52,949 nucleotides of DNA from Polyangiaceae bacterium (GCA_046351395.1 JAXLYP010000017.1:193508-246456); one strand, 5' to 3'; counted from the first letter of the stretch, positions 6,860-50,298 are shown. A program made the numbers and translations. Notes: generated by a model not told the origin, from the sequence alone.

Positions 6860-7703
6860 GCTCGGTCGCGACGCGCGTGTGGAGCTCGAGCACGGTGAAC
6901 CAATCGATGAGCTCGATGCGGAGCGCGCTCACGGCCGACGCGGCCCGCGCCGTGTGCGCGCGGGGGACCTCCGCGAGCGCATCGAGGAACCCCATGTCCG
7001 TCCCCGCTCCGACGGTCGCGCGCTCGCCGCGCGCGGTCTCGCACTCGACGAGCCCCGCGGTGACGCGGATCCAGTGGTTCGCGACATCTCCCGCGCTCCA
7101 GAGGACGTCGCCTCGCTGAAACCGCACGTCCGTGGACGCGCTCGCGATCTCCGCGAGGCCCTCCACGTTCGCGCGCGCGATGGGCGATCTCCGGAGCTGG
7201 ATGACCCGCTCCACGACCGTCAGCTCCTCGTCCCGAAACGTGCCGTGCTCCGGCGGATCGGAGCGATTGGGCAATGGCCCGCGCTCCGCGAGGAGGTCCC
7301 GCGCGAGGCCCCGCAGCACGAAGCGCTGGAGCGCGAAATCCCGTTGGAGCGCGATCCGGACCGCGTCTCCGGGGATCTCGAGCGCGAGCGTCCGTGCCTC
7401 CGTCGTCGCGCTCAGGTGATCGCGCTCCGTGAGGAGCGCGGTGAACCCGAGCGCGCGCTGGCTCTCCACGCGGCCGACCAGGGTGCCTTCGTGCTCCACG
7501 CGCACGCTCCCCTCGAGCACGTAGAGCACGGACGTGATCGGATCGGTCGCGCGCCAGATCACCGCGCGCGGCCGAAACCGCCGGTAGCGGGAGCGCTCCG
7601 CCATGAGCAGGAGAGTGTCCACGCTGACCGATCGAAGATCGGGCATCGAGCCGAGGAGGCGGGCGCGCGCCTCGACGCTCGCGAGCTCGGGCTCAGCTTG
7701 CAT
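6822..7703 (-). CDS. tandem cyclic-nucleotide-binding (CAP effector) domain protein
   Basis: Two cNMP-binding-like domains (RYRRFRPRAVIWRATDPITSVLYVLEGSVRVE...). Start overlaps the stop of the upstream TLC gene by 11 nt. Confidence 0.65.
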   Translation of the reverse strand: MQAEPELASVEARARLLGSMPDLRSVSVDTLLLMAERSRYRRFRPRAVIWRATDPITSVLYVLEGSVRVEHEGTLVGRVESQRALGFTALLTERDHLSATTEARTLALEIPGDAVRIALQRDFALQRFVLRGLARDLLAERGPLPNRSDPPEHGTFRDEELTVVERVIQLRRSPIARANVEGLAEIASASTDVRFQRGDVLWSAGDVANHWIRVTAGLVECETARGERATVGAGTDMGFLDALAEVPRAHTARAASAVSALRIELIDWFTVLELHTRVATELTAHLARGLRGD

Positions 7704-10515
7704 GCGGAGTGTCTCGTGGTGCAGAAGGGAACAGCGACGTCGAGGACGGAATCGAGGCTCGGCGCGTCACCTCCGGCGCCTCGGGTTCGGCCGCGCGATC
7801 GGGAGCTCCAGCGAGGAGGGCGCGGGCGCGCGAGAAGTCGGTCACGTCCGGCTCCTCCCTACAGAGCTCCTCGATCCGCGGGAGCTGACTCGTCATCCCG
7901 AGCTCCGCCGCGTGATAGGCAGCGAACTTGCGGAGGATCGCGCTCGAGCTCCCCAGCATCTGCGCGATCGCCGTCTCGTAGTCGAGATCCACGGATGCAT
8001 GGAACTCCTTCCCGCGCGTGCGTCGCTCGACGTCGTCGACGTCATCGACGAGCCCGATGACGGCGTCGCGCAGCGGATTCTTGAGGACGATGTGGATGAG
8101 CTCGACGGCGGTCGCGCGGTGCTCCTTCCCGCCCCGCTCGATGCTCGTGAAGATCGCGTCGATCTCCTCGTTCGGGTTGAGCAGCGCCAGCAGCCGGAAC
8201 ACGCGACCCACCATGTGTCGCTGCTTGTCTCGCAGCAAATCCACGAGCAGGCCGTGCCCGACCGTCGCTCGGCGTGGGTCCTCCTCCCGCCCGCGCCGGA
8301 GCGCGACGAACCGATCGAAGGACCGGTAGGCGCGGGCGACCGTGCGCTGGATCTCCTCCCCGAGGAGGCGCTCGTCGAGGCGCGTCTCGGGCCGCGCGAC
8401 GACGATCTGTCCGAGCGCGAGGATCGAGCGATACCGCACCATCCCATCGGGCTCCTGTCCGAGGTTCGCGAGCAGGATCTCGGGCGCCTCGGGCGAGTCG
8501 ATGTCCGCGAAGAGGCTCGGCACGAGCCTCCGCACCGCCCGCGGGCGATCCCGATCGCGGAGCGCGCGGACGATCGCGCCCGCGCCCGCGGGGCCCGCGG
8601 CGCTCAGCGCGAGGCGGACGTCCGCGCCCACCTGACTGTCTGCGAGCAGGTCGACCAGGGTGTTCGCGGACGTCTCGGTCGCGAGCCCGCCGAGCGCCGC
8701 GATCGCCGCGCGGCGGACGTCGAGCTCGCGCGCGCGCGTGAGCTCGACGATCTCGGGCTCGAAGCGGGTCGCCTTGCGCCAGCCGACGACCTCGGCCAGG
8801 AGGCGCCGGCTCTCCACGCTGCCCTCCGAGACGATCCGCCCGAGCTCGTGGTGAGCCTCTTCCGCCTCCATCATGGAGAACGCAGCCATCGTCGTGAGGA
8901 TCGCCGCGCGGATGTCCGGCGAGGTCTCCCGCGCGAGCTGCTCTCTCCACCGCGTCGCGTCCGGCGCGAGCACCGCGCGAGCGGCCATCGCCTCGGCGCG
9001 GACGCGGATGGAGGGGTGGCGATCCAAGTGGGTGAGCGCGTGGAGCGCGACCTTCCGACCGCGCACGCCGAAGATCCGGAGCGCGGTCACGACGACGGTC
9101 TCCGACGGGTGATACAGGATGAGCCCCGGGATGACGTGGGCCTTCCCCTCCCGATCCAAGATCCGTAGCGAAGACACGACCGTGCTCTCCGCTTCGCTCT
9201 CGAGCGACTCGAGGAGCGACTCGAGGGAGGCCATGTCGAGCCGCATGAGCGCGCCCGCGAGCCGCCTCCGACCGGACGCGAGGGCGTCCTTGAAGAGCTG
9301 CGCGTAGTCGCCTCGGAGCCATGTCGCGAGGACGACCGCGCCCGCGGCCGTGACGACGAGGAGGACGGCGAGCCATCGCGGTGGCAGCTCGGTCGCCACC
9401 CCGACGAGGATGACGACCGAGCCCACCATCTGGGCGCCCCGTTGACCGAGCGCGTCCATGAAGCTCTTGGCGACCGTCCGCGGACCGTCCTCGAGGGGCA
9501 CGAGCAGGAGCTCCGCGGCCGTGCGGTGCACGCTGAAGCGCATGCTGCCGTCCACGGCCTTCGTGATCACGGCGGGCGCGAGCGTGCCCGTGATCGCGAC
9601 GCCGAGGCCCCCGGCGACGAGCCCGAACGGCAGCACCGCGAACACCAACGGGAGAGGCAAGCGCGCGACGAGCGATCGGACCGCGAACACCTGAACGCAG
9701 ACCGAGATCACGTTCAGGACCACGTTCACGCGGCCGAACACGCGCGCGAGCTGGTCGTGCGCGAAGTGGGCGGTGATCTGCGACTTGAAGATGAAGTCCG
9801 AGATCGTGACGGCGATCGTGATGAGGCCGCAGACCGCGACCACCCGTCGGATGTAGGGGTGGCGAAGGGCCGTGCCGAGGCGCTCGCCGAGCGTCCCGTC
9901 GCGCCCGTCGTGCTCGCCGTCGCGCGCGCGTTCGTCGAGGCCGCCGCTCGAGAACAGCATCGGCATCCAGGCGGCGCCGAAGAACAGCACGCCCGCGAAG
10001 AGGGAGAGGTTCGCCGGCGCGACCCACGTGACGAGCCCGACCGCGCCGCTGCCGAGGATCGCGCCGAGCCCGGCTCCGAGCCCGATCATCCCGTAGAGCC
10101 GTTTGGCCTGGCGAATCGAGAAGAGCCCTCCAACGAGGGACCAGAAATGGATGAGGACAATCGTCGAGAGGACGCCCGACCAGATGTAGAAGACATAGAG
10201 CCCGACCTCACCCAGGCTCGGCAGCGCACGGGAGAGCGCGATCGTCCCGAGCGACGAGGCGACCGTCCAGCCGATCAGCACGCGCCGCGGCGTCGTGCGC
10301 CGGAACACGGCTTGGGCGCGCGTCGCGACGAGCGTCGCGGCGGCGAGCGCGACGTACACCCAAGGGAGTCGGCTCGTCGGGATGTGGGCGAGGAACATCG
10401 CGTCGCGCGTCGCCTCGAGGATGCTGTGGCCGGCCACGAAGACGAACAGGAAGACAAAGGCGGTGATCGCATCCCGCCGCTCCGATCGCCGCACCGGGAA
10501 GAGCCGCCGCAGCAC
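7693..10515 (-). CDS. TLC/Npt-family nucleotide transporter (ATP/ADP-translocase family) fused to C-terminal HEAT/PBS-lyase-like repeats
   Basis: N-terminal ~430 aa polytopic with TLC-like start (FLFVFVAGHSILEATRDAMF...); C-terminal ~500 aa alpha-helical repeats. GTG start 1 nt after the upstream gene's stop. Confidence 0.75.
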   Translation of the reverse strand: MLRRLFPVRRSERRDAITAFVFLFVFVAGHSILEATRDAMFLAHIPTSRLPWVYVALAAATLVATRAQAVFRRTTPRRVLIGWTVASSLGTIALSRALPSLGEVGLYVFYIWSGVLSTIVLIHFWSLVGGLFSIRQAKRLYGMIGLGAGLGAILGSGAVGLVTWVAPANLSLFAGVLFFGAAWMPMLFSSGGLDERARDGEHDGRDGTLGERLGTALRHPYIRRVVAVCGLITIAVTISDFIFKSQITAHFAHDQLARVFGRVNVVLNVISVCVQVFAVRSLVARLPLPLVFAVLPFGLVAGGLGVAITGTLAPAVITKAVDGSMRFSVHRTAAELLLVPLEDGPRTVAKSFMDALGQRGAQMVGSVVILVGVATELPPRWLAVLLVVTAAGAVVLATWLRGDYAQLFKDALASGRRRLAGALMRLDMASLESLLESLESEAESTVVSSLRILDREGKAHVIPGLILYHPSETVVVTALRIFGVRGRKVALHALTHLDRHPSIRVRAEAMAARAVLAPDATRWREQLARETSPDIRAAILTTMAAFSMMEAEEAHHELGRIVSEGSVESRRLLAEVVGWRKATRFEPEIVELTRARELDVRRAAIAALGGLATETSANTLVDLLADSQVGADVRLALSAAGPAGAGAIVRALRDRDRPRAVRRLVPSLFADIDSPEAPEILLANLGQEPDGMVRYRSILALGQIVVARPETRLDERLLGEEIQRTVARAYRSFDRFVALRRGREEDPRRATVGHGLLVDLLRDKQRHMVGRVFRLLALLNPNEEIDAIFTSIERGGKEHRATAVELIHIVLKNPLRDAVIGLVDDVDDVERRTRGKEFHASVDLDYETAIAQMLGSSSAILRKFAAYHAAELGMTSQLPRIEELCREEPDVTDFSRARALLAGAPDRAAEPEAPEVTRRASIPSSTSLFPSAPRDTPHAS

Positions 10516-10516
10516 G

Positions 10517-11965
10517 TCAGAACCCCGTCGTCCCGCCGACGAGGAACCGGACGCTCTCGGGCTCGCCGCCCTCCGCGAACGGCTTCGTCCCGAAGCCCAA
10601 GAGGAGGTTCAACGCGTGGTCACGGTGATTCGGCGATTGGAACCCCCCGACGAACGAGAACCGGAGTCGCTCGAGTTCGAAGTCCTCGAAGTCGCGCCCG
10701 AACACGTTCCCCACCTGCGCGCGGAGCGTGGCGTCGACGAACGACCAGATGGGCCAGGTGTACGTGACGCTCGCCGCGGCGGACGTCTCGCCGAGGAGGC
10801 GCCCGGGGGTGAAGCCGAGGAGGGGCTCGTCGTCGGGCACGCGATCGGTCCGACCGCTCCCGATGAGCTCCGTGAACGGCACGCGCGCCGTGCTCGAGAA
10901 GGGCTCGATCGCGCGGACGTCCACGAGGAGCCCGAGCACGCGCCGCGTCCCCGTGACGTCGATGAACCCGCCCACGGACCCGCCCACCTGCGCCCACTCG
11001 ACGTGCGACCCGACGTCGCTCCCGAGCTCGGCGTGCGCGTCGAGCCCGACCCCGGAGCCCGGCCCTGGGCGCGGCTGTCGCGAGTCGAGCACGACGCGCC
11101 CACCGACCTTCACCGCGGTGTATCCGGCGAACCCGTCGGGGAGGGGATAGAGCCCTCGAGCGACCGCGCGGGAGATGGGCAGCGTAGGACACTCGTGTGG
11201 CCATACCGGGCAGCTCTCGTCGGAGAACGAGTGGTGCCGGACGACGGCCCAAGCCTCCACGAAATTGGCCTTTCGCGGCTCCACGTGGGTCCGAATGCCG
11301 CCTCCGACCGAGCGCTGCTCGAACCTCGACTCGTCCGCGTAGCGAGACCGGTACCCCACACCGTAGAACAGGTAGTCGGCGCGGACGACCCCGTCCGCCT
11401 CGAGCTGCAGGTTGGAGCGCACGCGGTGAGAGCCGTCGGGTTCGACCTCGACGTCGAGCGGGACGCGGTCGACCACGCGAGCTGCGAAGTACCTCTCGCC
11501 CCCCGTCGCGACCGACGCGCGGAGTTGATTGTCTGTCACGAGGAAGTCGTCGTAGAAGTGGTAGAGGCCGACGCTCGGACGAAAACCGAACTCGTAGAAC
11601 GCCGTCGGGATGAGGCCCACGTTGTGGTGAGGGCCGAACGTGAAGAAGTCGGTCACCTTCGCCACGATGCCCTCGCGGTCGATCACCGTGGTGATCGCGC
11701 CGAGGGGGCGCCGGATGACGTAGTCCGAGACCACGTAGAGCGGCGCGAAGAGGACGCGGGGGATCCAGAGCGCGCCCTCCGCCGCGGTCGTCTCGCGCGG
11801 TCTGCCCTCGTAGTCCTGCGGTGGGCGCTTCTCTCCGGGCGGCCGGGATGGATCCTCGGGGAGCACGGCGGGGTGCTCGGGGACGTCCCCCCGCGCCGGG
11901 GGCGCCGCCGCGAGGGCAGCGCCGAACGCGAAGACCATGGCACCGAGCGCCTTGGGCGAGTTCAT
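10517..11965 (-). CDS. secreted beta-barrel-like protein with C-terminal Phe (paralog of 23156..24616)
   Basis: Signal peptide MNSPKALGAMVFAFGAALAAAPPARG. Ends ...LRFSFVGGFQSPNHRDHALNLLLGFGTKPFAEGGEPESVRFLVGGTTGF*, nearly identical to the paralog's C-terminus. ATGA overlap with the upstream lipoprotein gene. Confidence 0.7.
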   Translation of the reverse strand: MNSPKALGAMVFAFGAALAAAPPARGDVPEHPAVLPEDPSRPPGEKRPPQDYEGRPRETTAAEGALWIPRVLFAPLYVVSDYVIRRPLGAITTVIDREGIVAKVTDFFTFGPHHNVGLIPTAFYEFGFRPSVGLYHFYDDFLVTDNQLRASVATGGERYFAARVVDRVPLDVEVEPDGSHRVRSNLQLEADGVVRADYLFYGVGYRSRYADESRFEQRSVGGGIRTHVEPRKANFVEAWAVVRHHSFSDESCPVWPHECPTLPISRAVARGLYPLPDGFAGYTAVKVGGRVVLDSRQPRPGPGSGVGLDAHAELGSDVGSHVEWAQVGGSVGGFIDVTGTRRVLGLLVDVRAIEPFSSTARVPFTELIGSGRTDRVPDDEPLLGFTPGRLLGETSAAASVTYTWPIWSFVDATLRAQVGNVFGRDFEDFELERLRFSFVGGFQSPNHRDHALNLLLGFGTKPFAEGGEPESVRFLVGGTTGF

Positions 11966-13779
11966 TGGAGGGCCGCGCCCGGCTCGTCGGGCCTCTGGAT
12001 GGCGACCATCTTGAAGTGGGAGGACGCCCCGAGATCGTACAAATGAACGCGCAGCGGACCCCGCGCCGCGCCGTTCGAGACGTCGAGCACCGCGTATCGA
12101 AGGGGGTGATCGTCGGGCAGCGAGCGGTCGTCCACGACGCGCGGTAGATCCACGCAGACCGTCGCATCGTCGCCGAGGCTGACGGGGAGGGCCTTTCGCT
12201 GGTCGAGGTCGAGCCCCGTCCGGAGCTCGGCGGCGTACGTGAACCGCGTCCTCGGCCAGGTGGTCGTCTTGTGCGCGAGATCGGTCGCGCAGACGCGGTC
12301 GCCCTCGACGGTCACGTCCGCCAGCGGGGATACGACGCTGAAATACCGCGTGAGGATCTCGTCCCTTCGTTGGATGAGTGTCCGCGTGAGGAACTCCGTC
12401 GCGCGAGGGTCCGTGTAGTCGCCGACCCGCACCGCGGCCGCGATGTTCGCGTCGGTGAAGCGCGACAGGATGCGCGCCGCCCACGCGCCGTCCTCCTCCG
12501 TCATGCGAGCGAACGCGGGGTTCGGGTAGCCGCCCTTCCAGTCCTCGGGCACGAAGTCCGGCCTGAAATAGTCGAACATCGGGAGCTCGGTGTTCGCGAC
12601 GGGCCGGTCCCATGGGCGCTCGAACGAGCCGAGCGTCAGGAGGTCGATCGCCACGTCCTCCGGATCGAAGTAGTAGCTGTGGTTGATCCTCCGGTTCCAG
12701 CTCTCCCATTGCCAATGGCTGCCAAAGCAGTCCCCGAGGTCGATGTACCAATGTGTCGTCCGCCCCGGAGAGGAGTCCTTCGACTCGGGGTCCACGGCGT
12801 CCCAGGTGGTCATCGTGTTTTGCTCGCGCGAATCGAAGTGCCCGAGCCACGCGGCCATGAGCCGCGCTCCGCGGAGATCCCTTCGGTCCTCGTGAGGGAT
12901 GATGTCGTTGGGATCGTCTTCTCGCGTCTCCTCGTACCGGAAGGGGCCGATCGCGCGTCCTGGGAGCCACCGCGACGCCACCATTCGTACGAGCCCACCT
13001 CGCTTCTGTGCGCTGTCGAGGATCGCCTGGAGCTTCCCGTCGTCGAACGGCATTTTGGTGCCCGTATTGTCTGCGTAATCGAGCCCGGGCTCGAGCCTGA
13101 GCCAGGACTTGTCGACGTAGACAATCGTGTCGCACGCGGTCCACCAGCCCGCGGCGTGGTAGAGCCTGGACGCGATGGATGTCGCCCCGGTCGCCTTCTC
13201 GCCTTCGCCCTCGGCGTCTGCCTTCAGCATGAACTTGCCGACGCCCTCGATCTCGACCCGAAAGCCCGGGTTCGCGCCGTTCGCCTTGCCCATGTCGACG
13301 CGCCAGGCGCCCGGTTCGTGCGGGGCCGTGGCGATCGTCTTGTGGCCGCAGCTCCCGCGCGTGATCTCCTCGTCGGTCATCGGCCTCACGCCGATGCGGT
13401 TCGTGAACCAGCTCGAGTCGGGCACCTCGTCGACCGCGTTCACGTTCCGCGCAGCGAAGCCGACGTCCGCGGCGAAGAACTTCACGATGGGCCGGAAGAT
13501 GGTCTTGTCGGCGACGTCCCATAGGAACGGGGACTCGTACTCTTCGGGCCGACAGAGTTGCTTCTTCGCGTCCTTCGGATCGGGGCGACACGGCACTCGG
13601 ACCGCCCGCAGATCCTCGTCGATCCAGACCGGGTCGCGGAGCGGGAACCGCCGGATGCCACCGCACCCCGCGACCGAGGTCGCCGCGCCGCTCGCCAGCG
13701 CCGCGCCGATCACGACTCGGCATGCGGCTCGCAGAATCTTTACGGCCCCCGCCTCGCGATGAGCCCACCGAATCGCCAT
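11962..13779 (-). CDS. secreted lipoprotein with atypical kinase-like motifs (paralog of the split 18997/21043 gene)
   Basis: Signal and lipobox (...ALASGAATSVAGCGG). Motifs LMAAWLGHFDSREQNTM (HxDxxxxN-like) and WYIDLGDCFGS (DxG) align with VLTALIGHQDDIGVNFY and LLSVDNGLAFG of the paralog. ATG at 13779 overlaps the divergent PAP2 start. Confidence 0.6.
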   Translation of the reverse strand: MAIRWAHREAGAVKILRAACRVVIGAALASGAATSVAGCGGIRRFPLRDPVWIDEDLRAVRVPCRPDPKDAKKQLCRPEEYESPFLWDVADKTIFRPIVKFFAADVGFAARNVNAVDEVPDSSWFTNRIGVRPMTDEEITRGSCGHKTIATAPHEPGAWRVDMGKANGANPGFRVEIEGVGKFMLKADAEGEGEKATGATSIASRLYHAAGWWTACDTIVYVDKSWLRLEPGLDYADNTGTKMPFDDGKLQAILDSAQKRGGLVRMVASRWLPGRAIGPFRYEETREDDPNDIIPHEDRRDLRGARLMAAWLGHFDSREQNTMTTWDAVDPESKDSSPGRTTHWYIDLGDCFGSHWQWESWNRRINHSYYFDPEDVAIDLLTLGSFERPWDRPVANTELPMFDYFRPDFVPEDWKGGYPNPAFARMTEEDGAWAARILSRFTDANIAAAVRVGDYTDPRATEFLTRTLIQRRDEILTRYFSVVSPLADVTVEGDRVCATDLAHKTTTWPRTRFTYAAELRTGLDLDQRKALPVSLGDDATVCVDLPRVVDDRSLPDDHPLRYAVLDVSNGAARGPLRVHLYDLGASSHFKMVAIQRPDEPGAALQ

Positions 13780-14649
13780 CCGATCGCCGTGCGCGCGGCC
13801 GAGCTCCTCGGCTCGAGTCCGCTGCTCGTGCTCGCGGGCGTGGGCGTGTTCTCGATCGGGCTCGTCCTCGTTCTCGTCGTCCTCGCGAGGTGGATGAGCG
13901 CGCGGGGCCTCGGCTGGCGGAAGGCCCTCTTTCGACGCGCCGCGCGCGCTGTCGGCGCCGCCCCGAGCGCGCGCGCGAGGCTCTCGCGGCTCGTCCGGCT
14001 CGAGTACGAGCTCGTCCACCTGGGACTTGGGCTCGCGCTCCTCGCCGGGCTGGTCGTGTTCGTGGCGCTCGCGGTCTCCGTCGTCGACGACGGCGCAGTC
14101 GCGGCGTTCGACGAGTCGCTCGCGCGTGCGGTCCACCGATCGACGCCGCCCGAGCTCGTGCGCGTCATGCTCGTCGCGACCTCGCTCGGCGGCGGTGAGG
14201 CCGTCCTCGTCGTCGCGGTGGTCGTCGCGGTGGGGCTCCTGGTGCGGCGGCGATGGCACCTCGCCATCGGCTGGATCACGGCGGAGGCGGGCGCGGGCCT
14301 CTTCAACGCGCTCCTCAAGTCGCTCTATCGGCGCGCGCGTCCCACGCTCGACGATCCGTTCACGAGCGCATCCGGGTGGAGCTTCCCGAGCGGACACTCC
14401 ATGGGGACGATCGTCACCGCTGGGATGCTCGCTTATGTGTTCTCCCGGTTCTACCCGCCGGGGTGGCCGCGCTTCGTGGCCGTCTTCCTCGCGACGCTGT
14501 GGACGCTCGTCATTGGGTTCAGCCGCGTGTGCCTCGGCGTCCACTACGCGAGCGACGTGCTCGGAGGGTTCGCCGCGGGCGCGGTGTGGCTCGTCGTTTG
14601 CGTTTCGGGCCTCGAGGTGGCGTTGCGCCCCAATCGCTCGGCCGTTTAG
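13759..14649 (+). CDS. PAP2-family integral membrane phosphatase
   Basis: KSLYRRARPTLDD ... SFPSGHSMG ... SRVCLGVHYASDVLGG (PAP2 KxxxxxxRP / PSGH / SRxxxxxHxxxD motifs); several TM helices. Confidence 0.65.
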   Translation: MSPPNRHPIAVRAAELLGSSPLLVLAGVGVFSIGLVLVLVVLARWMSARGLGWRKALFRRAARAVGAAPSARARLSRLVRLEYELVHLGLGLALLAGLVVFVALAVSVVDDGAVAAFDESLARAVHRSTPPELVRVMLVATSLGGGEAVLVVAVVVAVGLLVRRRWHLAIGWITAEAGAGLFNALLKSLYRRARPTLDDPFTSASGWSFPSGHSMGTIVTAGMLAYVFSRFYPPGWPRFVAVFLATLWTLVIGFSRVCLGVHYASDVLGGFAAGAVWLVVCVSGLEVALRPNRSAV

Positions 14650-14773
14650 TCCGTCCCAGTCGTGACGTTTTGCCCCGATTCGTGGCGTTGGTGCGCGCCA
14701 GTCTGCCCTCGAGACGGGTGCCGCGCAGTCGCCAAGTCCGTCGTCCCCCATCGAAGAGAACCGAGGCCACGAC

Positions 14774-15790
14774 ATGCCAACCGTCCTGTCGCAACCGCGT
14801 CGTACCGCGCCCGCATTCGCAGCACGTTCGATGTTCTTCGGTGTCTTGATCAATGGGATCGTCCCTTCGTCCGCGCTCGCAGATCCGCAAGTGGACACAG
14901 CGCCGAGCGCTCCGACGGAGAAGGCAACCGCCGCGCCCACGCCGCTCGCCACGAAGAGCGCCGCGGAGAAGAAGCCGGACTCGCTGGATTGGGATCCGCG
15001 TTGGCCGGAGGTGAAACCCTACGAGTACATCCTCACCGGTGTGTTCGCGCTCGCAGCGATCGGTGGACAGGCGATCCCCGGCGGCCCGAGGTGGACGGGG
15101 CACAACGCGTTCGACGACGCGGGCCGCGAGGCGTTGCTCTTGCCGGACTTCGAGGATCAGGAGCGCGCGAAGGACTTCAGCGACGTGGGCCTCGTGATCC
15201 TCGTGAACCAAGCGCTGATCGACAATCTCTTCGTCACGTGGTGGGCGCGTGATCACCCGAAGACCGCATGGCAGCTGTCCGTGATCGACACCGAGACGCT
15301 GGCGTTCAGTATCGGCGTGGACGCGCTCGTCGCCGGCGCGACGGGCCGCGAGCGCCCGTACGTCGAAGCGCTGTGCGATCAGGAGGACCACAAGAATCGC
15401 GGCTACTGCGACGGGAGCAACCGCTACCGAAGCTTCTTCAGCGGACACTCCACGGCCGCGTTCACCCTGGCGGGGCTCACGTGCATCCATCACGCGGAGC
15501 TCGGTATTTACGGCCACCCCGTCGCTGACGCGTTCGCGTGCGGCGGCGCGATGGCGACGGCGACGGGCGTCGCGCTCCTCCGTGTCGCCTCTGATCAGCA
15601 CGATCTCTCGGACGTGCTCGTCGGGGCAGTGTGGGGCACCGCGACCGGGGTCACGCTGCCGTGGCTCCTCCACTACCGGGGCGGGGCGAAGGTCGAAGAG
15701 AAGAAGCCGGACCCGCATGCCGCCGTCGAGGCCCCGCCGCCGGGCGTGGTCGTCACGCCGAGCGGCGCGTACGTCATGGGAGCGTTCTGA
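14774..15790 (+). CDS. PAP2-family membrane phosphatase (secreted N-terminus); alternative start 14831
   Basis: SFFSGHSTAAF and RVASDQHDLSDVLVGAVWG motifs; several hydrophobic helices. Confidence 0.6.
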   Translation: MPTVLSQPRRTAPAFAARSMFFGVLINGIVPSSALADPQVDTAPSAPTEKATAAPTPLATKSAAEKKPDSLDWDPRWPEVKPYEYILTGVFALAAIGGQAIPGGPRWTGHNAFDDAGREALLLPDFEDQERAKDFSDVGLVILVNQALIDNLFVTWWARDHPKTAWQLSVIDTETLAFSIGVDALVAGATGRERPYVEALCDQEDHKNRGYCDGSNRYRSFFSGHSTAAFTLAGLTCIHHAELGIYGHPVADAFACGGAMATATGVALLRVASDQHDLSDVLVGAVWGTATGVTLPWLLHYRGGAKVEEKKPDPHAAVEAPPPGVVVTPSGAYVMGAF

Positions 15791-15793
15791 GCG

Positions 15794-16690
15794 ATGGGGT
15801 CCTCGAGAGAACGCCGATGGAGCGTCGCCGCGCGATCGATCTTCGTGGTCGTGATCGCCGTTCTCACCCGAGAGGCGCGCGGTCAAGTGCTCGACCTCCC
15901 GGACGCGACGACGAACCCGACCGCGCCACCGCGGGACGTGGATCAGAAGCTCCCCTATTGGGAGAGAGGAGAGATCCGGCCATTCACGTCGGCGGTGTTC
16001 GACGTCGGCGGGTTCTTCGTGCGCCCCGAGTTGAACGTCGGCTACGGGCAGCCGCACTTCAACTGGATCGGCGCGGAGATCTTCAGCAAGCTCACGCTCG
16101 GCGGCGTGACGCTCGGAGCGGGCGTCCACGGTCAGATCCCGAACGTCGACGCGCGCCTCGGCGTGCGGTCGTTCCGGTCGGCGGATCAACGCCTGCTCCA
16201 GCGCAAGAACGTGTATCGGGAGTCGGACCCGACGATCCTCGATCAGCCCGCCTCGGCCTACGACAGCGTCGACGCGGATCTCGCGGTGAACGTCCGCGCG
16301 CTCGGAGGATCCGTCAGCTTGGAGACGCGCGCGCTCGCGCTCTTCCAGGTCCCCGACGGATATGACGTCTTCGAGGACGTGTTCCGCGTCGTGGTCCGAC
16401 CGCCGCTCGTCTGGCAGGCGAAATTGACGTATGTCGTCTTCGCGGGCTGGGACGATCGCCTCGCGCTCGGGTTCACGACGGAGCTCCTCGGCGCTCCAGC
16501 GAGAGACAACCTCGTCTTCCGCGTCGGCCCGGTGCTCACCGTCGCGTTGACGGAGCACCTCCAGGCGATCGGCGGCGGCGCCTTCGCGATCCTGTACCAC
16601 GACGATCTCGGCCTCAGCGGGTCGGATCTCGGGCAGATCGGTCTGCGCTACCGTTGGGCGTCGGGAGAGCCTTACCCCGACTTCCCGTGA
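15794..16690 (+). CDS. secreted hypothetical protein (beta-rich)
   Basis: Signal peptide (RWSVAARSIFVVVIAVLTREARGQ); high GC3; no recognisable domain. Confidence 0.5.
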   Translation: MGSSRERRWSVAARSIFVVVIAVLTREARGQVLDLPDATTNPTAPPRDVDQKLPYWERGEIRPFTSAVFDVGGFFVRPELNVGYGQPHFNWIGAEIFSKLTLGGVTLGAGVHGQIPNVDARLGVRSFRSADQRLLQRKNVYRESDPTILDQPASAYDSVDADLAVNVRALGGSVSLETRALALFQVPDGYDVFEDVFRVVVRPPLVWQAKLTYVVFAGWDDRLALGFTTELLGAPARDNLVFRVGPVLTVALTEHLQAIGGGAFAILYHDDLGLSGSDLGQIGLRYRWASGEPYPDFP

Positions 16691-16721
16691 CGGGCGGCCC
16701 TCGCCGAGGGCCGCCCGTGCT

Positions 16722-17639
16722 TCAGAACTGCCCGCCCCAGGAGAGCTGCACGGGCGGCCGCGCGGTGACGAGCGGCGCGGACGCCGCCGCGCTCGTGTTC
16801 GGGCCGTCGACGGTCTGCGTGTAGTGCAGGGCGAGGGGGACCGCGAGGCCTACCCCGTACCCGAAGAGGAAGCCGCTGATCGCGTCGCTCATCCAGTGCC
16901 GATCGGAGATGACGCGCATCCCGGCGATGGTGACGGCGAGGGCCGTCGAGCCGACGCACGCGACGACGTCGGGCGCGCCGCCCCCGTAGAGCGGGACATA
17001 GGCGTGGTGGGCGCACGTCAGCCCCGCGCCGACCGCGCTCATCGTCGCGTGACCGCTGAACCAGCTCGCGTTGACGCCGAAGGAGCCACAGTCGTACGCC
17101 CAGCCTTTGTCTGTTTGGCATCCGATCCCGGCTGGGCGCTCCCGCGCGGCGAGCCGGTGGTTCACGCGCATGACGAGATACGCGATCCCGTAGGCCTCGA
17201 GGTTCATCGCCGTCAGCTGCTGGAGCATATCGAGGTTCTCGTCGATCGCCGGGACGAGGACTCCATCGATGAGGACGGGGTAGGCGGCGCTCACGGCGAG
17301 CAAGACGTCGCTCGCGATCTGAATGCCGCGTCGATCCTTAAGCCGCGGCATCGCGACGGCGTCGCGGGCGATCTCGTCGAACAGGATGGGCCCGATCCAC
17401 CGGGGCTCGATGGGCTGTTCGGTCCCGAACTCGATGATGCCCGCGCCGGTGATCGACAGGGCGGTGAGCGTGTACTCGCCCCACACGACGCGCGGGTGGG
17501 ACTCGTCCCAGTGCAGGCGGTGCTCGTCCTTGGCCTGCGCCGCTGCGCGCTCGCATGGCGCGAAAGCTGCGAGCGCCGCGCCCAGAAGGATCGCGTGTTG
17601 GTGTCTGTGCAGCGAGGAGTTCACCAGGGGATCCGTCAC
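16722..17639 (-). CDS. PAP2-family membrane phosphatase (paralog of 14774..15790)
   Basis: SWFSGHATMSAVGAGLTCAHHAY and RVISDRHWMSDAISGFLFGYG; signal peptide; ends in Phe. Confidence 0.65.
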   Translation of the reverse strand: MTDPLVNSSLHRHQHAILLGAALAAFAPCERAAAQAKDEHRLHWDESHPRVVWGEYTLTALSITGAGIIEFGTEQPIEPRWIGPILFDEIARDAVAMPRLKDRRGIQIASDVLLAVSAAYPVLIDGVLVPAIDENLDMLQQLTAMNLEAYGIAYLVMRVNHRLAARERPAGIGCQTDKGWAYDCGSFGVNASWFSGHATMSAVGAGLTCAHHAYVPLYGGGAPDVVACVGSTALAVTIAGMRVISDRHWMSDAISGFLFGYGVGLAVPLALHYTQTVDGPNTSAAASAPLVTARPPVQLSWGGQF

Positions 17640-18190
17640 TCGGGTGAGGGGGTCGACGTCGAGGGCTTGGGCGGTTCGGGCGGGGGCGGCGGTGTGGGCT
17701 CTCGCAGCGAGGGCACCGCGGACGCGCTCGATCCTGGCGTGGGCTGCTCCTTCGTCCCCCCCTTGTCGATCGGCGGGCCCTTCTCCGTCCCGTTCGGATC
17801 CTGTTCGGAGGGCTCGAGGTGCTCCTTCGCGTCACGGACAAAGCCGCTCGTGGGGACGTATTTGTAGGTCGCCTTTTGTCCACAGCCGCTGACGCCGAAC
17901 GTCGTCGCGTCGAGCTCGGTGACGTCGAGCGCCGTGTTGCCGCAGGTGAGGTCGAACGCCGCGCGCTCGCGCAGCGAGACCCAGTCGTCCTTCACGGGGT
18001 CGTGGATGATGACGTCCTTCTTCCCGCAGCCCGTGACGATCCGGATCGGGCCGGCGTGGTTCGTCTCGATGTCGTCCTCCTCGCACTCGAGCGTGTGCCG
18101 AGCCTTCGGCATGATCGATGGCCAGAAGCACGCCCCGATCAGCGTCCCCGAGACCACGGAGAGTGTGACGGCAAGCCTCGATGCGCTCAT
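17636..18190 (-). CDS. hypothetical lipoprotein with duplicated Cys-containing module and Pro-rich tail
   Basis: MSASRLAVTLSVVSGTLIGAC lipobox; internal repeat (LECEEDD...TGCGKKD / DLTCGNT...SGCGQKA). Stop overlaps the PAP2 start (ATGA). Confidence 0.5.
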   Translation of the reverse strand: MSASRLAVTLSVVSGTLIGACFWPSIMPKARHTLECEEDDIETNHAGPIRIVTGCGKKDVIIHDPVKDDWVSLRERAAFDLTCGNTALDVTELDATTFGVSGCGQKATYKYVPTSGFVRDAKEHLEPSEQDPNGTEKGPPIDKGGTKEQPTPGSSASAVPSLREPTPPPPPEPPKPSTSTPSPE

Positions 18191-18280
18191 GAGCTCCGGC
18201 CTCGTCCGAGGGACGTGAAGGTGCGCGGAGGGACCGCGCCGTGAACGAGCGCCCGTGGGGCGTTCATCTCGAAGAGCCAC

Positions 18281-18956
18281 TCACGAGCGCGATCCAAGGA
18301 CCGGACCATCGCCGAGGTCGTCCAAGTGGGAGGTGTCGGCGAGGCGCGTGGGGGTCCAGGCGAGCCCCGCGCTGTCGAGCCGGAATAGACTGGCCACGGG
18401 GCATGGAATGTCCTCCTCCGTGCCCGTGAGACCCTTCACGATCCCGAGGATGGCGACCGCGTGCGTCACGAGAAGGAGTGATCCGTCGTAGGTCGCGGCG
18501 AGGGCACGAGCGGTGAGGGCCGAGCGCGCGAACGCCTCCTCGATCGTCTCGAGCGATGGGGGCACCGAGCGGCGTGTGGCTCCGGTCCACCTCGACCCGC
18601 TCGAGGCGCGCTCGGAGCTCGTCCGCGGACAGCATGTCTCCTAGCCCCGGCCCCCAGTCGGGCCGCTGGAGCTCCGCGAGCCCCGGCTCGAGCGCCACGC
18701 CGCCTCCGATCACGCGCGCGACCTCGGCGGCGGTCTGGACGCAGCGGAGATAGGGGGACGACACGATCCGCGTGATGCCCGACGTCCCGAGGCGTGTCGC
18801 CACGGCTCGGGCCTCCTCGAGGCCGCGCGCGGACAATCCGGGATCGTGGGGCCGCGGGGCGGTGCGCCCCCACTCGAGGTCACTGAAATCGGCGCGGTCA
18901 CCGTGCCGAACCAGCCAAAGCGTTCGGGCGCGGACGGGCTCTGTGGCTGAGGTCAT
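18281..18956 (-). CDS. histidine phosphatase (phosphoglycerate-mutase) family protein with an apparent +1 frameshift in a C5 run near 18561-18565
   Basis: N-terminal frame: TLWLVRHGDRADF (RHG motif) ... HTPLGAP. C-terminal frame: SLETIEEAFARSALTARALAATYDGSLLLVTHAVAILGIV. Removing one C from gcccccatcg gives a continuous HTPLGAPSLETIEE. Confidence 0.6.
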
Positions 18957-18996
18957 CGACGCTCCACGGGCACACAGCGTGCTTGGTTGGTATTCG

Positions 18997-19599
18997 ATGC
19001 ACGTCCTCCGCCATGCGGTGATGGGTGCGAGCATGGCGCTCGCCGGCTGCGCCTCGTCGCCCATGCCCGCGTGGCCCGTGTCGACCCCTGCGGAGCTCTG
19101 TCAGGACCCGACCCTCGGCCCCTCCGACTTCTGCATGCCCGCCGCGCGCATCGAGGTGTGGCTCCGCGAGGGCGACTTTCGGATCACGAACGTGGCGTTC
19201 TCGAGCTCGGGCGTGACGCGCCCCTACAAACTCAGGCTCGAGCTCGCGTCGGGGCTGACCATCAACGCGAAGTTCAAGCGCGCGCCGGACGATCTCGAGG
19301 CGTTCAACAACAGCCCGCGGCGCGAGCTCGCCGCCTATGAGATCCAGAAGCTGTTCTTGGACCCGGACGACTACGTCGTCCCTCCGACGGTGCTCGCCTG
19401 CATCCCGGCGCGCACCGAGCTGATGCCGGAGCTCGAGCCGCACCCGAGGGCGACGTGCGCGATCGGCGTACTCGCGTATTGGGTGGAGGGCCTCACGGAC
19501 CAGGGGGTCGTCGACCCCGCGCGGTGGGCGGCGGACGCGGGGTACCGCGACGTACCCGTTCACCCGTCGGACGGGATCAGCGTGGGGACTTCCAGTTGA
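18997..19599 (+). CDS. lipoprotein, N-terminal portion of a kinase-like protein interrupted by an IS66 remnant
   Basis: Lipobox MGASMALAGC; ...YKLRLELASGLTINAKFKRAPDD...ELAAYEIQKLF... resembles an N-lobe. Same reading frame as 21043..21549. Confidence 0.5.
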   Translation: MHVLRHAVMGASMALAGCASSPMPAWPVSTPAELCQDPTLGPSDFCMPAARIEVWLREGDFRITNVAFSSSGVTRPYKLRLELASGLTINAKFKRAPDDLEAFNNSPRRELAAYEIQKLFLDPDDYVVPPTVLACIPARTELMPELEPHPRATCAIGVLAYWVEGLTDQGVVDPARWAADAGYRDVPVHPSDGISVGTSS

Positions 19600-19669
19600 G
19601 CTGGGTCGCAAGCTGCAAGGAGGAAGCCGAGGATCGACCTTCGCTGGAGGCGAAGCGAATGGATCACGG

Positions 19670-20990
19670 TCATGACTCGCTGGGCGAACAGGCATCCTCG
19701 CTCGCTCTGGGAGCCGTAAGAGACCTTGCGCCAAAGCACGAACGGCGCAGCGCGCGCTCGGCATGATTATCAGGGATCCACTTCAGGCTCGAAGGCGAAC
19801 GTGAGGAGGGCGGCCTTGTGTTCGAGTATGTCGAGGCAGGAGCCGGAGACGCCGCGCAGGCGCAGCCCCGCGCCGCGTTCGAGGAGTCCCTCGAACGCCA
19901 TCTGCGCTGGTCGCCATCCTCTGGTACTTGGCGCGTGAGGGTGCCGTCCCGCACCTTGTGCCAGGCGGCAGCACAAGGTGAGAGAGCAGAGAAGGTCCTC
20001 CCCGAGTTGGCGTCCCGCGTCCTTGCGTTCGGAGAAGGCGACGAACTTCCTGATGAGGTGCGCCCAGCAGATCTGCCGCCGCCCTGATGGCCCAGAAGCC
20101 GAACTGCGAGCCTCGGTCCGTCACCAAGGATCCCGGAGAGGGCCCATGAGCGCGGCGATTGTCCGCGACAAGCATCGGCGGTGACGAAGAACACAGCGAC
20201 GGACCGCGTTGCGATCGTCCAGAGCGCGGCATACAGGCCGGCGACTCGCCAGGTGCTTCCGTCCACGTGCTTCACGGGGTGCGCGCGGACGTAGCAGGCC
20301 GCGGCATCCACCGGGGCAGCGATAGCGTCGTTGATCCGCTCCTCGGCCTCGCTGAGGGCGCCGAGCGAGACTGGGATGCCGAAGATCTCGGAGAGGTACT
20401 CCCGGCAACTGTCGCGCCACTGTCCGCGCGCCGAGGAACAGCCGATGAACGCGAGCAGCCGGGGACCGAACATGTGGCTCGGGACGCTGCCGGCAGACTC
20501 GCCCACGTCGTCTTCCCGCAGTCCTTGCAACAGGCCCCGCCCATGACGATCTCGTGAACGTCCGGCTTGATCCTTCGGGGATGTCGACGACCTGATGCAG
20601 GCGCGGGTCGATCCCCTCCGCCGCGAGATTCCGTCCGCCGCATCCTCGACATCTCTTCGGCGCCAGCTTCGTCCGACGGGTCACCTTCTCGGGCGGGAAC
20701 AGCACGCGGGTGTTCGGCTTGTGTCCGGGCTGGCCGCCGCGACTTCGACCGGTCGGCTTCTTCTCGGGTCGAGTCCCAGGTAGATCGGTCGACGGAGGCT
20801 TGCCCGACTCCTCGAGTTCTGCCCCAGCTGCTGCTCGAGGTCGGCGACTCGCACCTTGAGCTGCGCGATCTCCGCGTCCTGCCCGCGATGATCGGTGTCG
20901 CGCTCCGCGACCATGGCAAGCAGCGCCGCGACCTGGGCTTCCAACTTCGCCAGACGCTTGCCGACCGAGGTCACCGACCCACTCGATCAT
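19670..20990 (-). mobile_element. IS66-family transposase (TnpC-like) remnant, frameshifted and truncated
   Basis: Three frames carry successive TnpC segments: leucine zipper (LAKLEAQVAALLAMVAE), GGQPGHKPNTR...CRGCGG...RLHQVVDIPE, and ...YVRAHPVKHVDGSTWRV. No tnpA/tnpB and no intact IRs. Flanked at 21021-21046 by an AT-rich repeat gtatgatcacatatgatcatgtatgg. Confidence 0.6.
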
Positions 20991-21042
20991 GCGGCGATCC
21001 TCGTGTCGATCCCCGATCGCGTATGATCACATATGATCATGT

Positions 21043-21549
21043 ATGGCTGCTCGACCCGGTGAACGGGTACACCGCGACAACCTCGGGAACTTGAACGTGC
21101 TGACGGCGCTCATCGGTCACCAAGACGACATTGGAGTGAACTTCTACCGGTCGAAGGACGCGGCGCGCCCGCGGCTATTGTCTGTCGACAATGGGCTCGC
21201 GTTCGGCGCGATGGGAGACAATCCCATTCGGTTCTTCAGCAGCGCATGGAGCGACGTGCGAGTCCCGCTCCTGCCTTCGAAGACGGTGGACAGGCTCGGC
21301 TCGGTCGACCGGGCGCGCCTCGAGCCCCTCGGCGTGGTCGCGCAGATGCGCCTCGAGGGCGGCGCGTTCCATCCCATCCCACGGACGCCGACGCTCGATC
21401 CGAACCAGGCCGTGCGCTGGAACGGGGACGACGTCCAGCTCGGGCTCACCGCCGAGGAGATCACGGACGTCGATGTCCGGCTGGCACGGCTCCTCGGCGC
21501 GATCGACTCCGAGGAGGTCCAGCGCGGTCGTCCCCGCGAATCGAAGTGA
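21043..21549 (+). CDS. C-terminal kinase-like fragment (continuation of 18997..19599)
   Basis: NVLTALIGHQDDIGVNFYRS (HxDxxxxN) and LLSVDNGLAFG (DxG), homologous to the same motifs in 11962..13779. High GC3. Confidence 0.5.
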   Translation: MAARPGERVHRDNLGNLNVLTALIGHQDDIGVNFYRSKDAARPRLLSVDNGLAFGAMGDNPIRFFSSAWSDVRVPLLPSKTVDRLGSVDRARLEPLGVVAQMRLEGGAFHPIPRTPTLDPNQAVRWNGDDVQLGLTAEEITDVDVRLARLLGAIDSEEVQRGRPRESK

Positions 21550-21719
21550 TCGCTCGCTTCGAGGGGAGATCGCTGCCGACGATCGACGTCGCCGAGGAGG
21601 GCGGTGCGCTCGCCACCTCGGCGTGGGTCGAAAGTGCCTCGACTTGGCACCCAAATGCCACATCGAGCCGCCCTGCGAGCCCTCCTCGGGCTGGTGCGCG
21701 AATCGCATGAGCACCAAGG

Positions 21720-23159
21720 ATGAGCAACGCGCCGCGACGATCGTCGAGTCCACCCGATCCCAAAGAGGTCGCCCGGCGCTCCCTCGTCGAACGAGCGCTC
21801 GGGGTGATCACCGAGGTGAGGGCAGGCGAGGGGGGGACCGCACTCCTCATGACGCTCAATGTCTTTCTGCTGCTCACCGCATACTATCTCATCAAGCCGG
21901 TCCGTGAGGGCCTCATCGGGAGCGTGAAGCACGGCCCCGAGTACAAGAGCTACATGGGGGGCGCGGTCGCGCTCGCGCTCTTCGCCATCGTCCCGCTCTA
22001 CGGGATGCTCGCCGCGAGGCTGAAGCGGAACGTGCTCATCTCGAGCGTCTCGCTCTTCTTCGTCGCGAACCTCGTCGGCTTCTGGATGCTCGGCCGCCTC
22101 CCCTGGGTCGCGACCGAGACGGGGGCGACGGTCTATGCGCTCGCGTTCCTCCTCTGGGTGGGCGTGTTCAACCTCATGATCGTCGCGCAGTTCTGGGCGT
22201 TCGCCGCCGACGTGTACACCGACGAGCAGGGGAAGCGGTTGTTCGCGCTCATCGGTCTGGGCGCGTCCGTCGGCGCGGTGATGGGGAGCCTGGTCATGAA
22301 CCGCGTCGTGACCGAGCTCGGCACGGAGCACATGATGCTCGTCGCCGCCGTGACGCTCGCGCTCGCGACGGCGGTGACGCTGCTCATCCATCGGCGCGAG
22401 TCCCGGCGGCCGCGGGCGCCGGACCCGGAGAAGGAGCGGAAACAGCGCGAGGAGAAGGAGGCGAAGCAGAGCAGTCAGGGCGCGTTCTCGCTCGTGCTCC
22501 ACGACCGGTATTTGCTGCTCATCGCGGCGTTCACCGTGCTCTTCCAGATCGTGAACACCAATGGCGAGTTCATCCTCTCGAGCCTCGTGGCGGACGCGTC
22601 GCGCGCCGTGACCGAGACGCGAGAGGAGCAGAAGGCGTGGATCGCCTCGTACTACGGGAGCTTCTTTCTCTGGGTGAACATCGCGGGCGTGGCGATCCAG
22701 ACGTTCCTCGTCTCGCGGATCGTGAAGTGGGGCGGGCTCAAGGTCGGCCTCCTCATCTTCCCCGTCGTCGCGCTCATCAGCGAGGCGGCCATCGCGGTCG
22801 TCCCGGTGCTCCTCCTCGTTCGGATCGGCAAGACGGCGGAGAACTCGCTCGACTATTCGCTCAACAACACGCTCCGCAACGCCCTCTGGCTCCCCACGAC
22901 GACGCGCGCGAAGTACGTCGCGAAGCAGGCGATCGACAGCTTCGTGTCGCGCGTGGGCGACATGGGGTCGGCGCTCGCGATCTTCATCCTCATCGACGCG
23001 CTCCACTTGACCGTGCGAGCGGTCGCGACGCTCAACGCGTGCCTCGTCCTCGCTTGGATCTACGTGTCGATCGAGATCGTCCGCGAGAACGGCAAGCTCA
23101 CCGAGGACGCGAAGGGCAAAGCGCTTTCACGGCTGGAGGCGGCGGGGGCGAGCGCGTGA
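21720..23159 (+). CDS. TLC/Npt-family nucleotide transporter (ATP/ADP-translocase family)
   Basis: ALLMTLNVFLLLTAYYLIKPVREGLIG... 12-TM-type profile; paralog of the N-terminal domain of 7693..10515. Confidence 0.75.
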   Translation: MSNAPRRSSSPPDPKEVARRSLVERALGVITEVRAGEGGTALLMTLNVFLLLTAYYLIKPVREGLIGSVKHGPEYKSYMGGAVALALFAIVPLYGMLAARLKRNVLISSVSLFFVANLVGFWMLGRLPWVATETGATVYALAFLLWVGVFNLMIVAQFWAFAADVYTDEQGKRLFALIGLGASVGAVMGSLVMNRVVTELGTEHMMLVAAVTLALATAVTLLIHRRESRRPRAPDPEKERKQREEKEAKQSSQGAFSLVLHDRYLLLIAAFTVLFQIVNTNGEFILSSLVADASRAVTETREEQKAWIASYYGSFFLWVNIAGVAIQTFLVSRIVKWGGLKVGLLIFPVVALISEAAIAVVPVLLLVRIGKTAENSLDYSLNNTLRNALWLPTTTRAKYVAKQAIDSFVSRVGDMGSALAIFILIDALHLTVRAVATLNACLVLAWIYVSIEIVRENGKLTEDAKGKALSRLEAAGASA

Positions 23160-24616
23160 GGACACCGGGGGCGAGCCTCACCCTCGTCCTCGTGTGCGCG
23201 CTCGCGGGCAGGTCCGCGACGGCGCGCGCGGACGGCGCGAGCCCCCCCGCGCCGCCGCCGCACCCGTCGACGCTCCCAGAGGACGCGCGCCGCGCCCCGG
23301 GGGAGAAGCGCCCGCTGCAAGAGTACGAGGGGCGCCCGCGCGAGACCACGACCGCGGAGGACGCCCTCTGGGTCCCACGCGTCCTCCTGTTCCCCGCGTA
23401 CCTCGTCTCGGAGTTCGTGGTTCGGAGGCCGCTCGGCGCGATCGACACCGCGCTCGAGACGGGCTCGACGGGCGGCCGGCTCATCGACGTGTTCACGTTC
23501 GGACCGCGCCACAACGCCGGTTTGGTCCCGACCGCGTTCTACGACTTCGGGTTCCGTCCGAGCGCGGGGCTCTACCTCTTCTACGACGACTTCCTCGCGA
23601 CAGACAATCAGCTCCGCGCGGCGTTCGCGACCGGCGGAGAGCGGTATTTCAGGGCGCGGGTGGTGGACCGAATCCCCCTTCACGTCGTCCGGGGCGAGGA
23701 CGGCGAGCACGAGGTCAGGGCGAACCTCCAGCTCGAGCTCGCTGGGCTCGCGCGGCCCGACCATCGGTTCTACGGCCTCGGCTTCGGATCGAAGAGCGCG
23801 CACGGATCGGAGTTCGAACAGAGATCGGTCGGGGGAGGAGTCCGCTTCCGCGCGGAGCCCTGGAGGTGGTCCTTCCTCGAGTCTTGGGTGCTCTATCGGC
23901 ACCACGACTTCTCGGATGGGGGGTGCGACGCACGCCCGTCGGACTGTGATCACCCGCCGATCTCATGGGCCATCGAGAGGGGCTGGTACGCGGCGCCAGT
24001 GGGCTTCGACGGATACCAGACAATCAAAGTCGGCGCGCGAGCGGTGGTGGACACGCGCCCGGATCGACCCGCGCCGGGATCGGGCGCGGGCTCGGAGATC
24101 CGCTTGGAGCTGACGAACGACACGCGCGGCGGGGAGTGGGCGGAGGGGGGCGCCACCGTGGGCGGCTTCCTCGATCTCACCGGGACGCGGAGGGTCCTCG
24201 AGCTGACGCTCGACGTGCGCGCCCTCGAGCCGCTCTCGTCGGGAACGGCGATCCCGTTCACCGAGCTCGTCGGCGCGGCCCGCATGGATGGAATCCTCGA
24301 GGACGGCGTGCTGCGCGGGTTCATCGCGGGTCGCCTGCTCGGAGAGAGCTCCGTGGTGGCCTCGCTCGGGTATTCGTGGCCCATCTGGGCCTGGGTCGAC
24401 GCCACTCTGCAAGCCCAAGTCGGCAACGTGTTCGCGCACCGGCTCGCCGATTTCGCGCCGGAGCGGCTGCGGTTCTCGTTCGTCGGCGGCTTTCGATCAC
24501 CGAATCACCGGGACCACGCGCTCAACGTGCTGCTGGGGTTCGGGACCGAGCCGTTCGCCGACGGCGGCTCGCCGGAGAGCCTGCGGTTCCTCATCGGGGG
24601 CACGACCGGGTTCTAA
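23156..24616 (+). CDS. secreted beta-barrel-like protein with C-terminal Phe (paralog of 10517..11965)
   Basis: GTG start overlapping the transporter stop (GTGA); signal peptide; C-terminus ...LRFSFVGGFRSPNHRDHALNVLLGFGTEPFADGGSPESLRFLIGGTTGF*. Confidence 0.7.
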   Translation: MRTPGASLTLVLVCALAGRSATARADGASPPAPPPHPSTLPEDARRAPGEKRPLQEYEGRPRETTTAEDALWVPRVLLFPAYLVSEFVVRRPLGAIDTALETGSTGGRLIDVFTFGPRHNAGLVPTAFYDFGFRPSAGLYLFYDDFLATDNQLRAAFATGGERYFRARVVDRIPLHVVRGEDGEHEVRANLQLELAGLARPDHRFYGLGFGSKSAHGSEFEQRSVGGGVRFRAEPWRWSFLESWVLYRHHDFSDGGCDARPSDCDHPPISWAIERGWYAAPVGFDGYQTIKVGARAVVDTRPDRPAPGSGAGSEIRLELTNDTRGGEWAEGGATVGGFLDLTGTRRVLELTLDVRALEPLSSGTAIPFTELVGAARMDGILEDGVLRGFIAGRLLGESSVVASLGYSWPIWAWVDATLQAQVGNVFAHRLADFAPERLRFSFVGGFRSPNHRDHALNVLLGFGTEPFADGGSPESLRFLIGGTTGF

Positions 24617-48426: not shown

Positions 48427-48478
48427 GAAGACTCATGCCCCCAAGTTCCCACGTGCGCGAGATGGACACTACTGCGCG
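48427..48478. repeat. about 50-bp repeat, copy 1 (pairs with 50163..50216)
   Basis: gaagactcatgcccccaagt.c..acgtgcgcgagatggac.cta.tgcgc shared directly. Confidence 0.6.
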
Positions 48479-50106: not shown

Positions 50107-50162
50107 GGGTGTTCTCCGAACGGAGCGGCAGTTGGAGGGCGGAGGAGTGTGCGTGCGCGGAC

Positions 50163-50216: not shown

Positions 50217-50298
50217 GAAAGTTAAAATTCTCGTGCCGCGGCCTCCTACGCTCGAGTCCAACCCCAACGAATCCCATGGTCGAGACTGCCGAAGCCAT

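Follow-up and report, generated by a model that had tools for sequence, protein, structure and literature searches.

A complete insertion sequence (IS) of the IS66 family, with a single open reading frame (ORF), very probably transposed into a kinase-like lipoprotein gene of a Polyangiaceae bacterium and split that gene in two. The gene lies between positions 18997 and 21549 of a 52,949-nucleotide stretch of DNA (GCA_046351395.1, JAXLYP010000017.1:193508-246456), here called the window, which has a G+C content of about 70% and belongs to a metagenome-assembled genome (MAG). Two plus-strand ORFs are called there, 18997..19599 and 21043..21549, and both their coordinates and a frame check place them in a common frame. 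A first-pass annotation, made from the sequence of the window, had taken them for the N-lobe and C-lobe parts of one gene into which an opposite-strand IS66-family element had been inserted, and the orthologues that we found are indeed single, uninterrupted genes. In the public record the two halves are deposited separately, as hypothetical proteins; a protein search found the product of the N-terminal ORF to be identical to 'MAG: hypothetical protein U0414_27365 [Polyangiaceae bacterium]' (P0007), whose gene is on a 246-kb contig.

A repeat search followed by close reading placed the element at 19552..21070 (1519 bp), with its transposase on the minus strand. The terminal inverted repeats, GTACCCGTTCACC, match at 13 of 13 positions between both ends, and within the window this 13-mer is confined to the two ends of the element (chance expectation 0.05). 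Abutting both ends is a direct repeat of 8 bp, ACCGCGAC, exact at all eight positions, so that the left junction falls at 19551/19552 and the right junction at 21070/21071; the boundaries of about 19600..21042 given previously are corrected accordingly. The insertion lengthened the gene by 1519 + 8 = 1527 bp, a multiple of three (3 x 509), and for this reason the halves keep one frame and get called as two 'hypothetical proteins'. Their junction-facing ends consist of IS sequence: the 'N-lobe' ORF closes with 16 IS codons (19552..19599), stop included, and the 'C-lobe' ORF opens with 9 (21043..21070), its in-frame ATG at 21043 being supplied by the IS.

The disrupted lipoprotein gene

Removal of the IS together with one copy of the duplication restores a lipoprotein of 341 aa with the lipobox LAGC (Cys18). 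The restored protein has 401 homologues, the full-length uninterrupted ones reaching 69% identity, and dozens of them, 324-380 aa in length, align across both halves with no gap where the junction falls. In the family alignment, the junction AGYRD/NLGNLNVLTALIGHQDD (AGYRD/NLGNLNVL) is collinear with the orthologue, and all 21 of the 21 invariant columns are kept. The contig of the closest orthologue (L006) carries the target site, TACCGCGAC/AACCTGGG, once and uninterrupted, in the same synteny as in the window: a Cys-rich lipoprotein, His_Phos, the orthologue of the split gene, and a TLC-like transporter. Over their 1026 bp, the host halves contain no indel (insertion or deletion) and no stop.

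The IS sits at codon 185/186, just ahead of the helix preceding the catalytic loop. The HxDxxxxN and DxG motifs reported for the C-lobe part are present there as H199-Q-D201-DIGV-N206 and D222-N-G224, and both are conserved across the family alignment. A second candidate for the HxDxxxxN motif, the chimeric VHRDNLGN at the IS junction, was rejected; the conserved HQDDIGVN lies downstream of it. Searches of the restored protein against the Pfam and NCBIfam models gave no match. Its predicted fold is that of a Fam20 / PI4K-II-like atypical kinase, bilobal, with the catalytic-loop Asp/Asn and a metal-binding Asp. On the basis of this fold, which agrees with the kinase-like character proposed in the first-pass annotation, we regard the host gene as encoding a predicted Fam20 / PI4K-II-like atypical kinase lipoprotein. 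Its HxDxxxxN loop and DxG motif resemble those of the Fam20 secretory-pathway kinases and of type II PI4-kinase (PDB 5xom, 5yh0, 4pla), and like the Fam20 kinases the protein is predicted to be exported, in this case as a lipoprotein. Unlike them it is bacterial, its identity to the solved structures is 14-18%, and its assignment as a kinase is by predicted fold. With its signal peptide and N-lobe cut off by the insertion from the half that holds the catalytic loop and the C-lobe, the gene has presumably lost its function, and the disrupted copy would be a null allele.

The IS66-family element and its relatives

When the minus strand of the insert was translated, an IS66-type transposase could be read over three frames, with a leucine-zipper coiled-coil N-terminus, the motif GGQPGH, the two CxxC pairs CRGCGG and CCKDCG, the block YVRAHPVKHVDGSTWRV, and a C-terminus ending in LIPSDG before the stop codon. 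Before stitching, the raw single-frame fragments gave sub-threshold Pfam matches only. A stitched frame of 470 aa was used for the profile searches and matched the NCBIfam model NF033517 'IS66 family transposase' with 204.8 bits (cutoff 180; E 2e-60; profile positions 1-383 of 387) and the Pfam models DDE_Tnp_IS66 (PF03050, E 1.8e-17) and DUF6444 (E 9e-9); a protein search with the same frame returned 1733 homologues. Translation and profile matches together bear out the degraded TnpC with zipper and zinc finger that had been described on the opposite strand, and with it the IS66 similarity of the middle segment.

One transposase frame and a 96-bp leader take up the 1519 bp, and there is no accessory tnpA or tnpB. 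Because tnpA and tnpB would not fit, we place the element in the single-ORF ISBst12-like subgroup; it is a full-length single-ORF member of the IS66 family and is new to that subgroup. As in the ISBst12 group (PMC12898284), a single transposase ORF with a DDE_Tnp_IS66 domain is found without tnpA/tnpB, the terminal repeats start with GTA/GTG, and an 8-bp direct repeat is present; such a repeat is described in this group for ISDge4 of Deinococcus geothermalis, among others (PMC12898284), and an 8-bp target duplication is described for IS66 (PMC6778807, citing Machida 1984). In contrast to ISBst12-group members such as ISDge4, the subgroup to which the window element belongs is seen mostly in Myxococcota MAGs, at 1.50-1.53 kb, and its ends read GTA(C/A)CCGTTCAC; the frame of the window copy is, in addition, broken. 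With the canonical Agrobacterium IS66 the element shares a TnpC-type transposase with leucine zipper, zinc-finger-like CxxC pairs and DDE domain, and the 8-bp duplication. It differs from that tnpA-tnpB-tnpC element in being 1.5 kb long and without tnpA/tnpB; the canonical IS66 measures roughly 2.5 kb.

The best homologue of the stitched frame, P0121, is an intact protein of 474 aa with 85% aa identity. It is carried on five short metagenome contigs (L001-L005) by the same 1529-bp element, the ends of which are identical to the 13-bp ends in the window. Two of these contigs, L003 and L004, begin and stop exactly at the ends of the element, the pattern expected when assemblies break at a repeat. 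In L001 and L002, the two flanks of the intact element lack a matching 8-bp duplication, and the metagenome assembly has likely joined flanks of different copies. Besides the ends, the window copy shares with the 1529-bp element the AT-rich TGATCA leader, and it differs from it by 111 mismatches (92.7% nucleotide identity) and by 17 indels of 1-2 bp, comprising 12 deletions and 5 insertions (net -10 bp), that span 19746..20893. The usual criterion of ISfinder is 95% nucleotide identity, by which the window copy would be classed as an IS of its own, though a close relative. The earlier term 'degraded remnant' therefore holds for the reading frame, which is broken, but not for the element, which is full length (1519 vs 1529 bp) and retains both terminal repeats and the 8-bp duplication.

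Four further relatives, from unrelated genomes, measure 1503-1533 bp, have the ends GTA(C/A) followed by the same sequence as above, and are flanked by perfect 8-bp duplications. A scan of genome contigs with the intact transposase found distant relatives only (at most 64% identity), and annotated IS66-family transposases borne on plasmids were at most 38% identical. In another Polyangiaceae MAG (GCA_016719945.1; locus L047, 3001..4841), an IS66-family transposase is likewise split, into ORFs of 268 and 369 aa, and frameshifted copies of IS66 may be a recurrent feature of MAGs from the Polyangiaceae.

The AT-rich repeat at 21021..21046 had been taken for the right junction. It sits 24 bp within the element, with the terminal repeat on one side and the GTG start on the other, and the intact relative conserves it, which makes it the leader of the IS and not a junction. 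This leader is missing from the more distant relatives. It is presumed to be a promoter/operator region; a scan of the leader for the sigma-70 consensus found no match. GATC occurs 13.8 times per kb in the IS, a density not much above the 9.3 per kb of the window background, and a search of the window against Rfam gave no match. The features of the locus are collected in Table 1.

Table 1. Parts of the split gene and of the inserted element, in window coordinates.
Feature	Position	Strand	Evidence
5' part of host gene, codons 1-185 (lipoprotein signal, lipobox LAGC Cys18, N-lobe)	18997..19551	+	ORF, restored translation, orthologue collinearity, predicted fold
Target-site duplication, left copy ACCGCGAC	19544..19551		Identical to 21071..21078; single in L006
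Single-ORF IS66-family (ISBst12-like) IS, 1519 bp	19552..21070	-	Identity to intact relative, NF033517, architecture of relatives
Terminal inverted repeat GTACCCGTTCACC, transposase-distal	19552..19564		Repeat search; holds transposase stop TGA 19560..19562 (minus strand)
Transposase frame (TnpC-type DDE), GTG at 20974 to TGA at 19560	19560..20974	-	Three-frame translation, indel map
AT-rich IS leader, 35% GC, TATGATCA x2	21021..21046		25/26 identical in intact element
Terminal inverted repeat, transposase-proximal (reverse complement of GTACCCGTTCACC)	21058..21070		Repeat search
Target-site duplication, right copy ACCGCGAC	21071..21078		Direct-repeat match
3' part of host gene, codons 186-341 (HQDDIGVN catalytic loop, DNG motif, C-lobe)	21079..21549	+	Restored translation, alignment, predicted fold

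Age of the insertion and origin of the frameshifts

The anatomy of the element, its family, its target duplication and the restored gene are established by the data above. We propose that an ISBst12-like element jumped into codon 185/186 of the gene for the 341-aa lipoprotein, that the 8-bp target was duplicated on insertion, and that the signal peptide and N-lobe would thereby have been cut off from the catalytic half, leaving a null allele. The transposase as sequenced bears the 17 indels, with which the copy could not have moved itself; they would either pre-date the insertion, which would then have been a mobilization in trans, or be errors of the consensus.

We infer that the insertion is evolutionarily recent from the perfect duplication and 13-bp ends, from the host halves without indel or stop, and from the invariant residues, all of which are kept. 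Decay in place would predict about 11.5 indels in the 1026 bp of the host gene; none is seen (P ~1e-5, or ~1e-3 if only 10 of the IS indels are counted as disruptive). An equally useless host gene without indels, beside an IS with 17, argues that the indels did not arise in place and that the insertion is recent. Against this stand the scans of JGI metagenomes, which matched neither the 30-nt IS end nor the 24-nt empty site; no second copy of the exact element and no empty-site allele turned up in the scans, and for this reason recency and copy number are inferred.

The differences between the window copy and the intact element have a marked structure. By codon position (1/2/3) the mismatches number 26/14/68, and the ratio of nonsynonymous to synonymous substitution rates (dN/dS) is 0.17. 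The mismatch rate is 13.3% within 10 nt of an indel and 5.7% elsewhere, a 2.3-fold difference (p 3e-7), and this clustering of indels with mismatches is beyond what ordinary decay explains. Of the 17 indels, only about 4 touch a base run, six are 2-bp events, and none is of 3 bp or more. Along the 17 indels the frame returns to register 6 times, which is no excess over the ~5.7 expected by chance.

We give a little under an even chance to the reading that the insertion is real but that its 17 indels are errors of consensus or polishing, confined to a repeated element in this MAG; the IS would then be intact and active and would have jumped recently. The source is a MAG, the substitutions look like those of a functional gene by codon position and dN/dS, all indels are of 1-2 bp, and a mosaic consensus of diverged copies would yield indels and mismatches clustered in the way observed. 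In the His_Phos gene next to the split gene, the frame shifts by one base within a C5 run, and on this reading the puzzle of a decayed IS within an undecayed gene disappears. Two observations speak against such errors: the ~50 kb around the element contain ORFs of up to 972 codons from stop to stop, indicating a low indel error rate, and the indels lie mostly outside base runs, with the six 2-bp events among them.

It is also quite possible, at somewhat longer odds than even, that the copy was already defective on arrival and was moved in trans by an intact related transposase that recognized its 13-bp ends. The deposited sequence has 17 frame-breaking indels, yet perfect ends, a perfect duplication and an undecayed host gene; the indels are biased toward deletions and fall mostly outside base runs; and an intact close relative exists in nature in P0121, on contigs that look like those of a multicopy element. 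Several results weigh against an origin of the indels by natural decay before arrival. The substitutions look selected when compared with the intact lineage (dN/dS 0.17). At most ~54 of them would be neutral, which gives an indel-to-substitution ratio of at least 0.3, unusual for natural decay; for at least 17 indels, the probability would be 6e-5 if the ratio were 0.1 and 0.05 if it were 0.2. It is likewise unusual for such decay that none of the 17 indels exceeds 2 bp. These features of substitutions and indels speak at the same time for consensus errors. Moreover, no other copy with these frameshifts was found among ~5.8 billion proteins, searched with an ORF that contains out-of-frame stretches, and the window holds no helper copy.

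The remnant of the first-pass annotation would be an old insertion that decayed in place, in a module long inactivated. The frame broken 17 times and the frameshift in the adjacent His_Phos gene are in favour of this reading, but we consider it very unlikely, as nothing is missing from the length of the element, its ends and duplication are perfect, and the host halves combine the lack of indels and stops calculated above with the retention of every invariant residue. Finally, the separate annotation of the two ORFs as hypothetical proteins might suggest a pair of naturally separate genes that flank an IS. This is refuted to near certainty by the homologues that span both halves without a junction gap, by the alignment and the target site in L006, by the IS-encoded ends of both ORFs, and by the exact excision, which gives back the sequence of the orthologue.

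Relaxed selection on the module, which had been suggested previously, is possible, since the adjacent His_Phos gene is frameshifted; the split gene itself is without decay, which points to a recent insertion.

Neighbouring genes and significance

The locus 11962..13779 had been described as the intact paralogue of the split gene. It is a minus-strand gene; its product is a 605-aa lipoprotein with ~2578 relatives, no match among the Pfam or NCBIfam models, and a predicted fold of a CtkA/PI4KII/Fam20-like kinase followed by a C-terminal beta-sandwich domain. BLASTP detected no significant similarity between this protein and the restored 341-aa protein (E 0.93), and comparison of the two family alignments (A1 and A2) with hhalign gave a probability of 1.4%, with 52 columns aligned, in the catalytic-loop stretch only. 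Since they have no significant sequence similarity and only the fold in common, the two lipoproteins share a fold class and are not recent duplicates; the product of 11962..13779 is kinase-like by predicted fold and belongs to a different family. Among the other neighbouring pairs, the outer membrane protein (OMP)-like genes are 62% identical and are true paralogues, the TLC-like genes are 23% identical, and the two PAP2 genes are 32% identical. An intact paralogous module that diverged recently is thus not borne out, and to say that one module is inactivated while its twin is intact overstates the redundancy.

The region 7693..24616 contains two sets of genes, each with a kinase-fold lipoprotein, a TLC/MFS nucleotide-transporter-like gene and an OMP-like gene; in one set the TLC/MFS-like gene carries a fusion to HEAT repeats, and the genes between the sets include PAP2 and His_Phos phosphatases. 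It is speculation that this region is an envelope phosphorylation system fed by exported ATP. The adjacency of kinase and TLC genes is kept in L006 and is not conserved in distant homologues; the neighbours in L048 are PPK2 and Metallophos. In the His_Phos gene beside the split gene (18281..18870, minus strand), the frame changes at the C5 run 18558..18562 relative to the L006 orthologue, and this gene is either a real pseudogene or the site of a homopolymer sequencing error. Elsewhere in the window, 48469..50298 and 50299..51897 (minus strand) are adjacent ORFs of 609 and 532 aa for glycine-rich, secreted or lipoprotein-like products with GGxGG repeats; the pair looks paralogous by eye and lies where the GC skew is strongly negative.

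The event is an ordinary IS knockout that is now precisely delimited, and its sole unusual point is the contrast in decay between IS and host gene. Its value is mainly for annotation: the three 'hypothetical proteins' U0414_27365, _27375 and _27380 (the loci U0414_27365..27380 correspond to proteins MFO0616341-44) are one disrupted gene and an IS, and the genome as assembled has no working copy of the kinase-like lipoprotein. The ends, leader and 8-bp duplication delimit a single-ORF subgroup of the IS66 family and are an aid to its masking and naming. If the copy was defective on arrival, keeping only its 13-bp ends and leader, and was moved in trans, non-autonomous copies would be shown to be usable substrates for single-ORF transposases of the IS66/ISBst12 type. 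The contrast between a frameshifted IS and an undecayed host gene may, however, be an artefact of assembly, and a frameshifted IS in an undecayed gene is a warning that the frameshifts of repeat elements in MAGs may have that origin.
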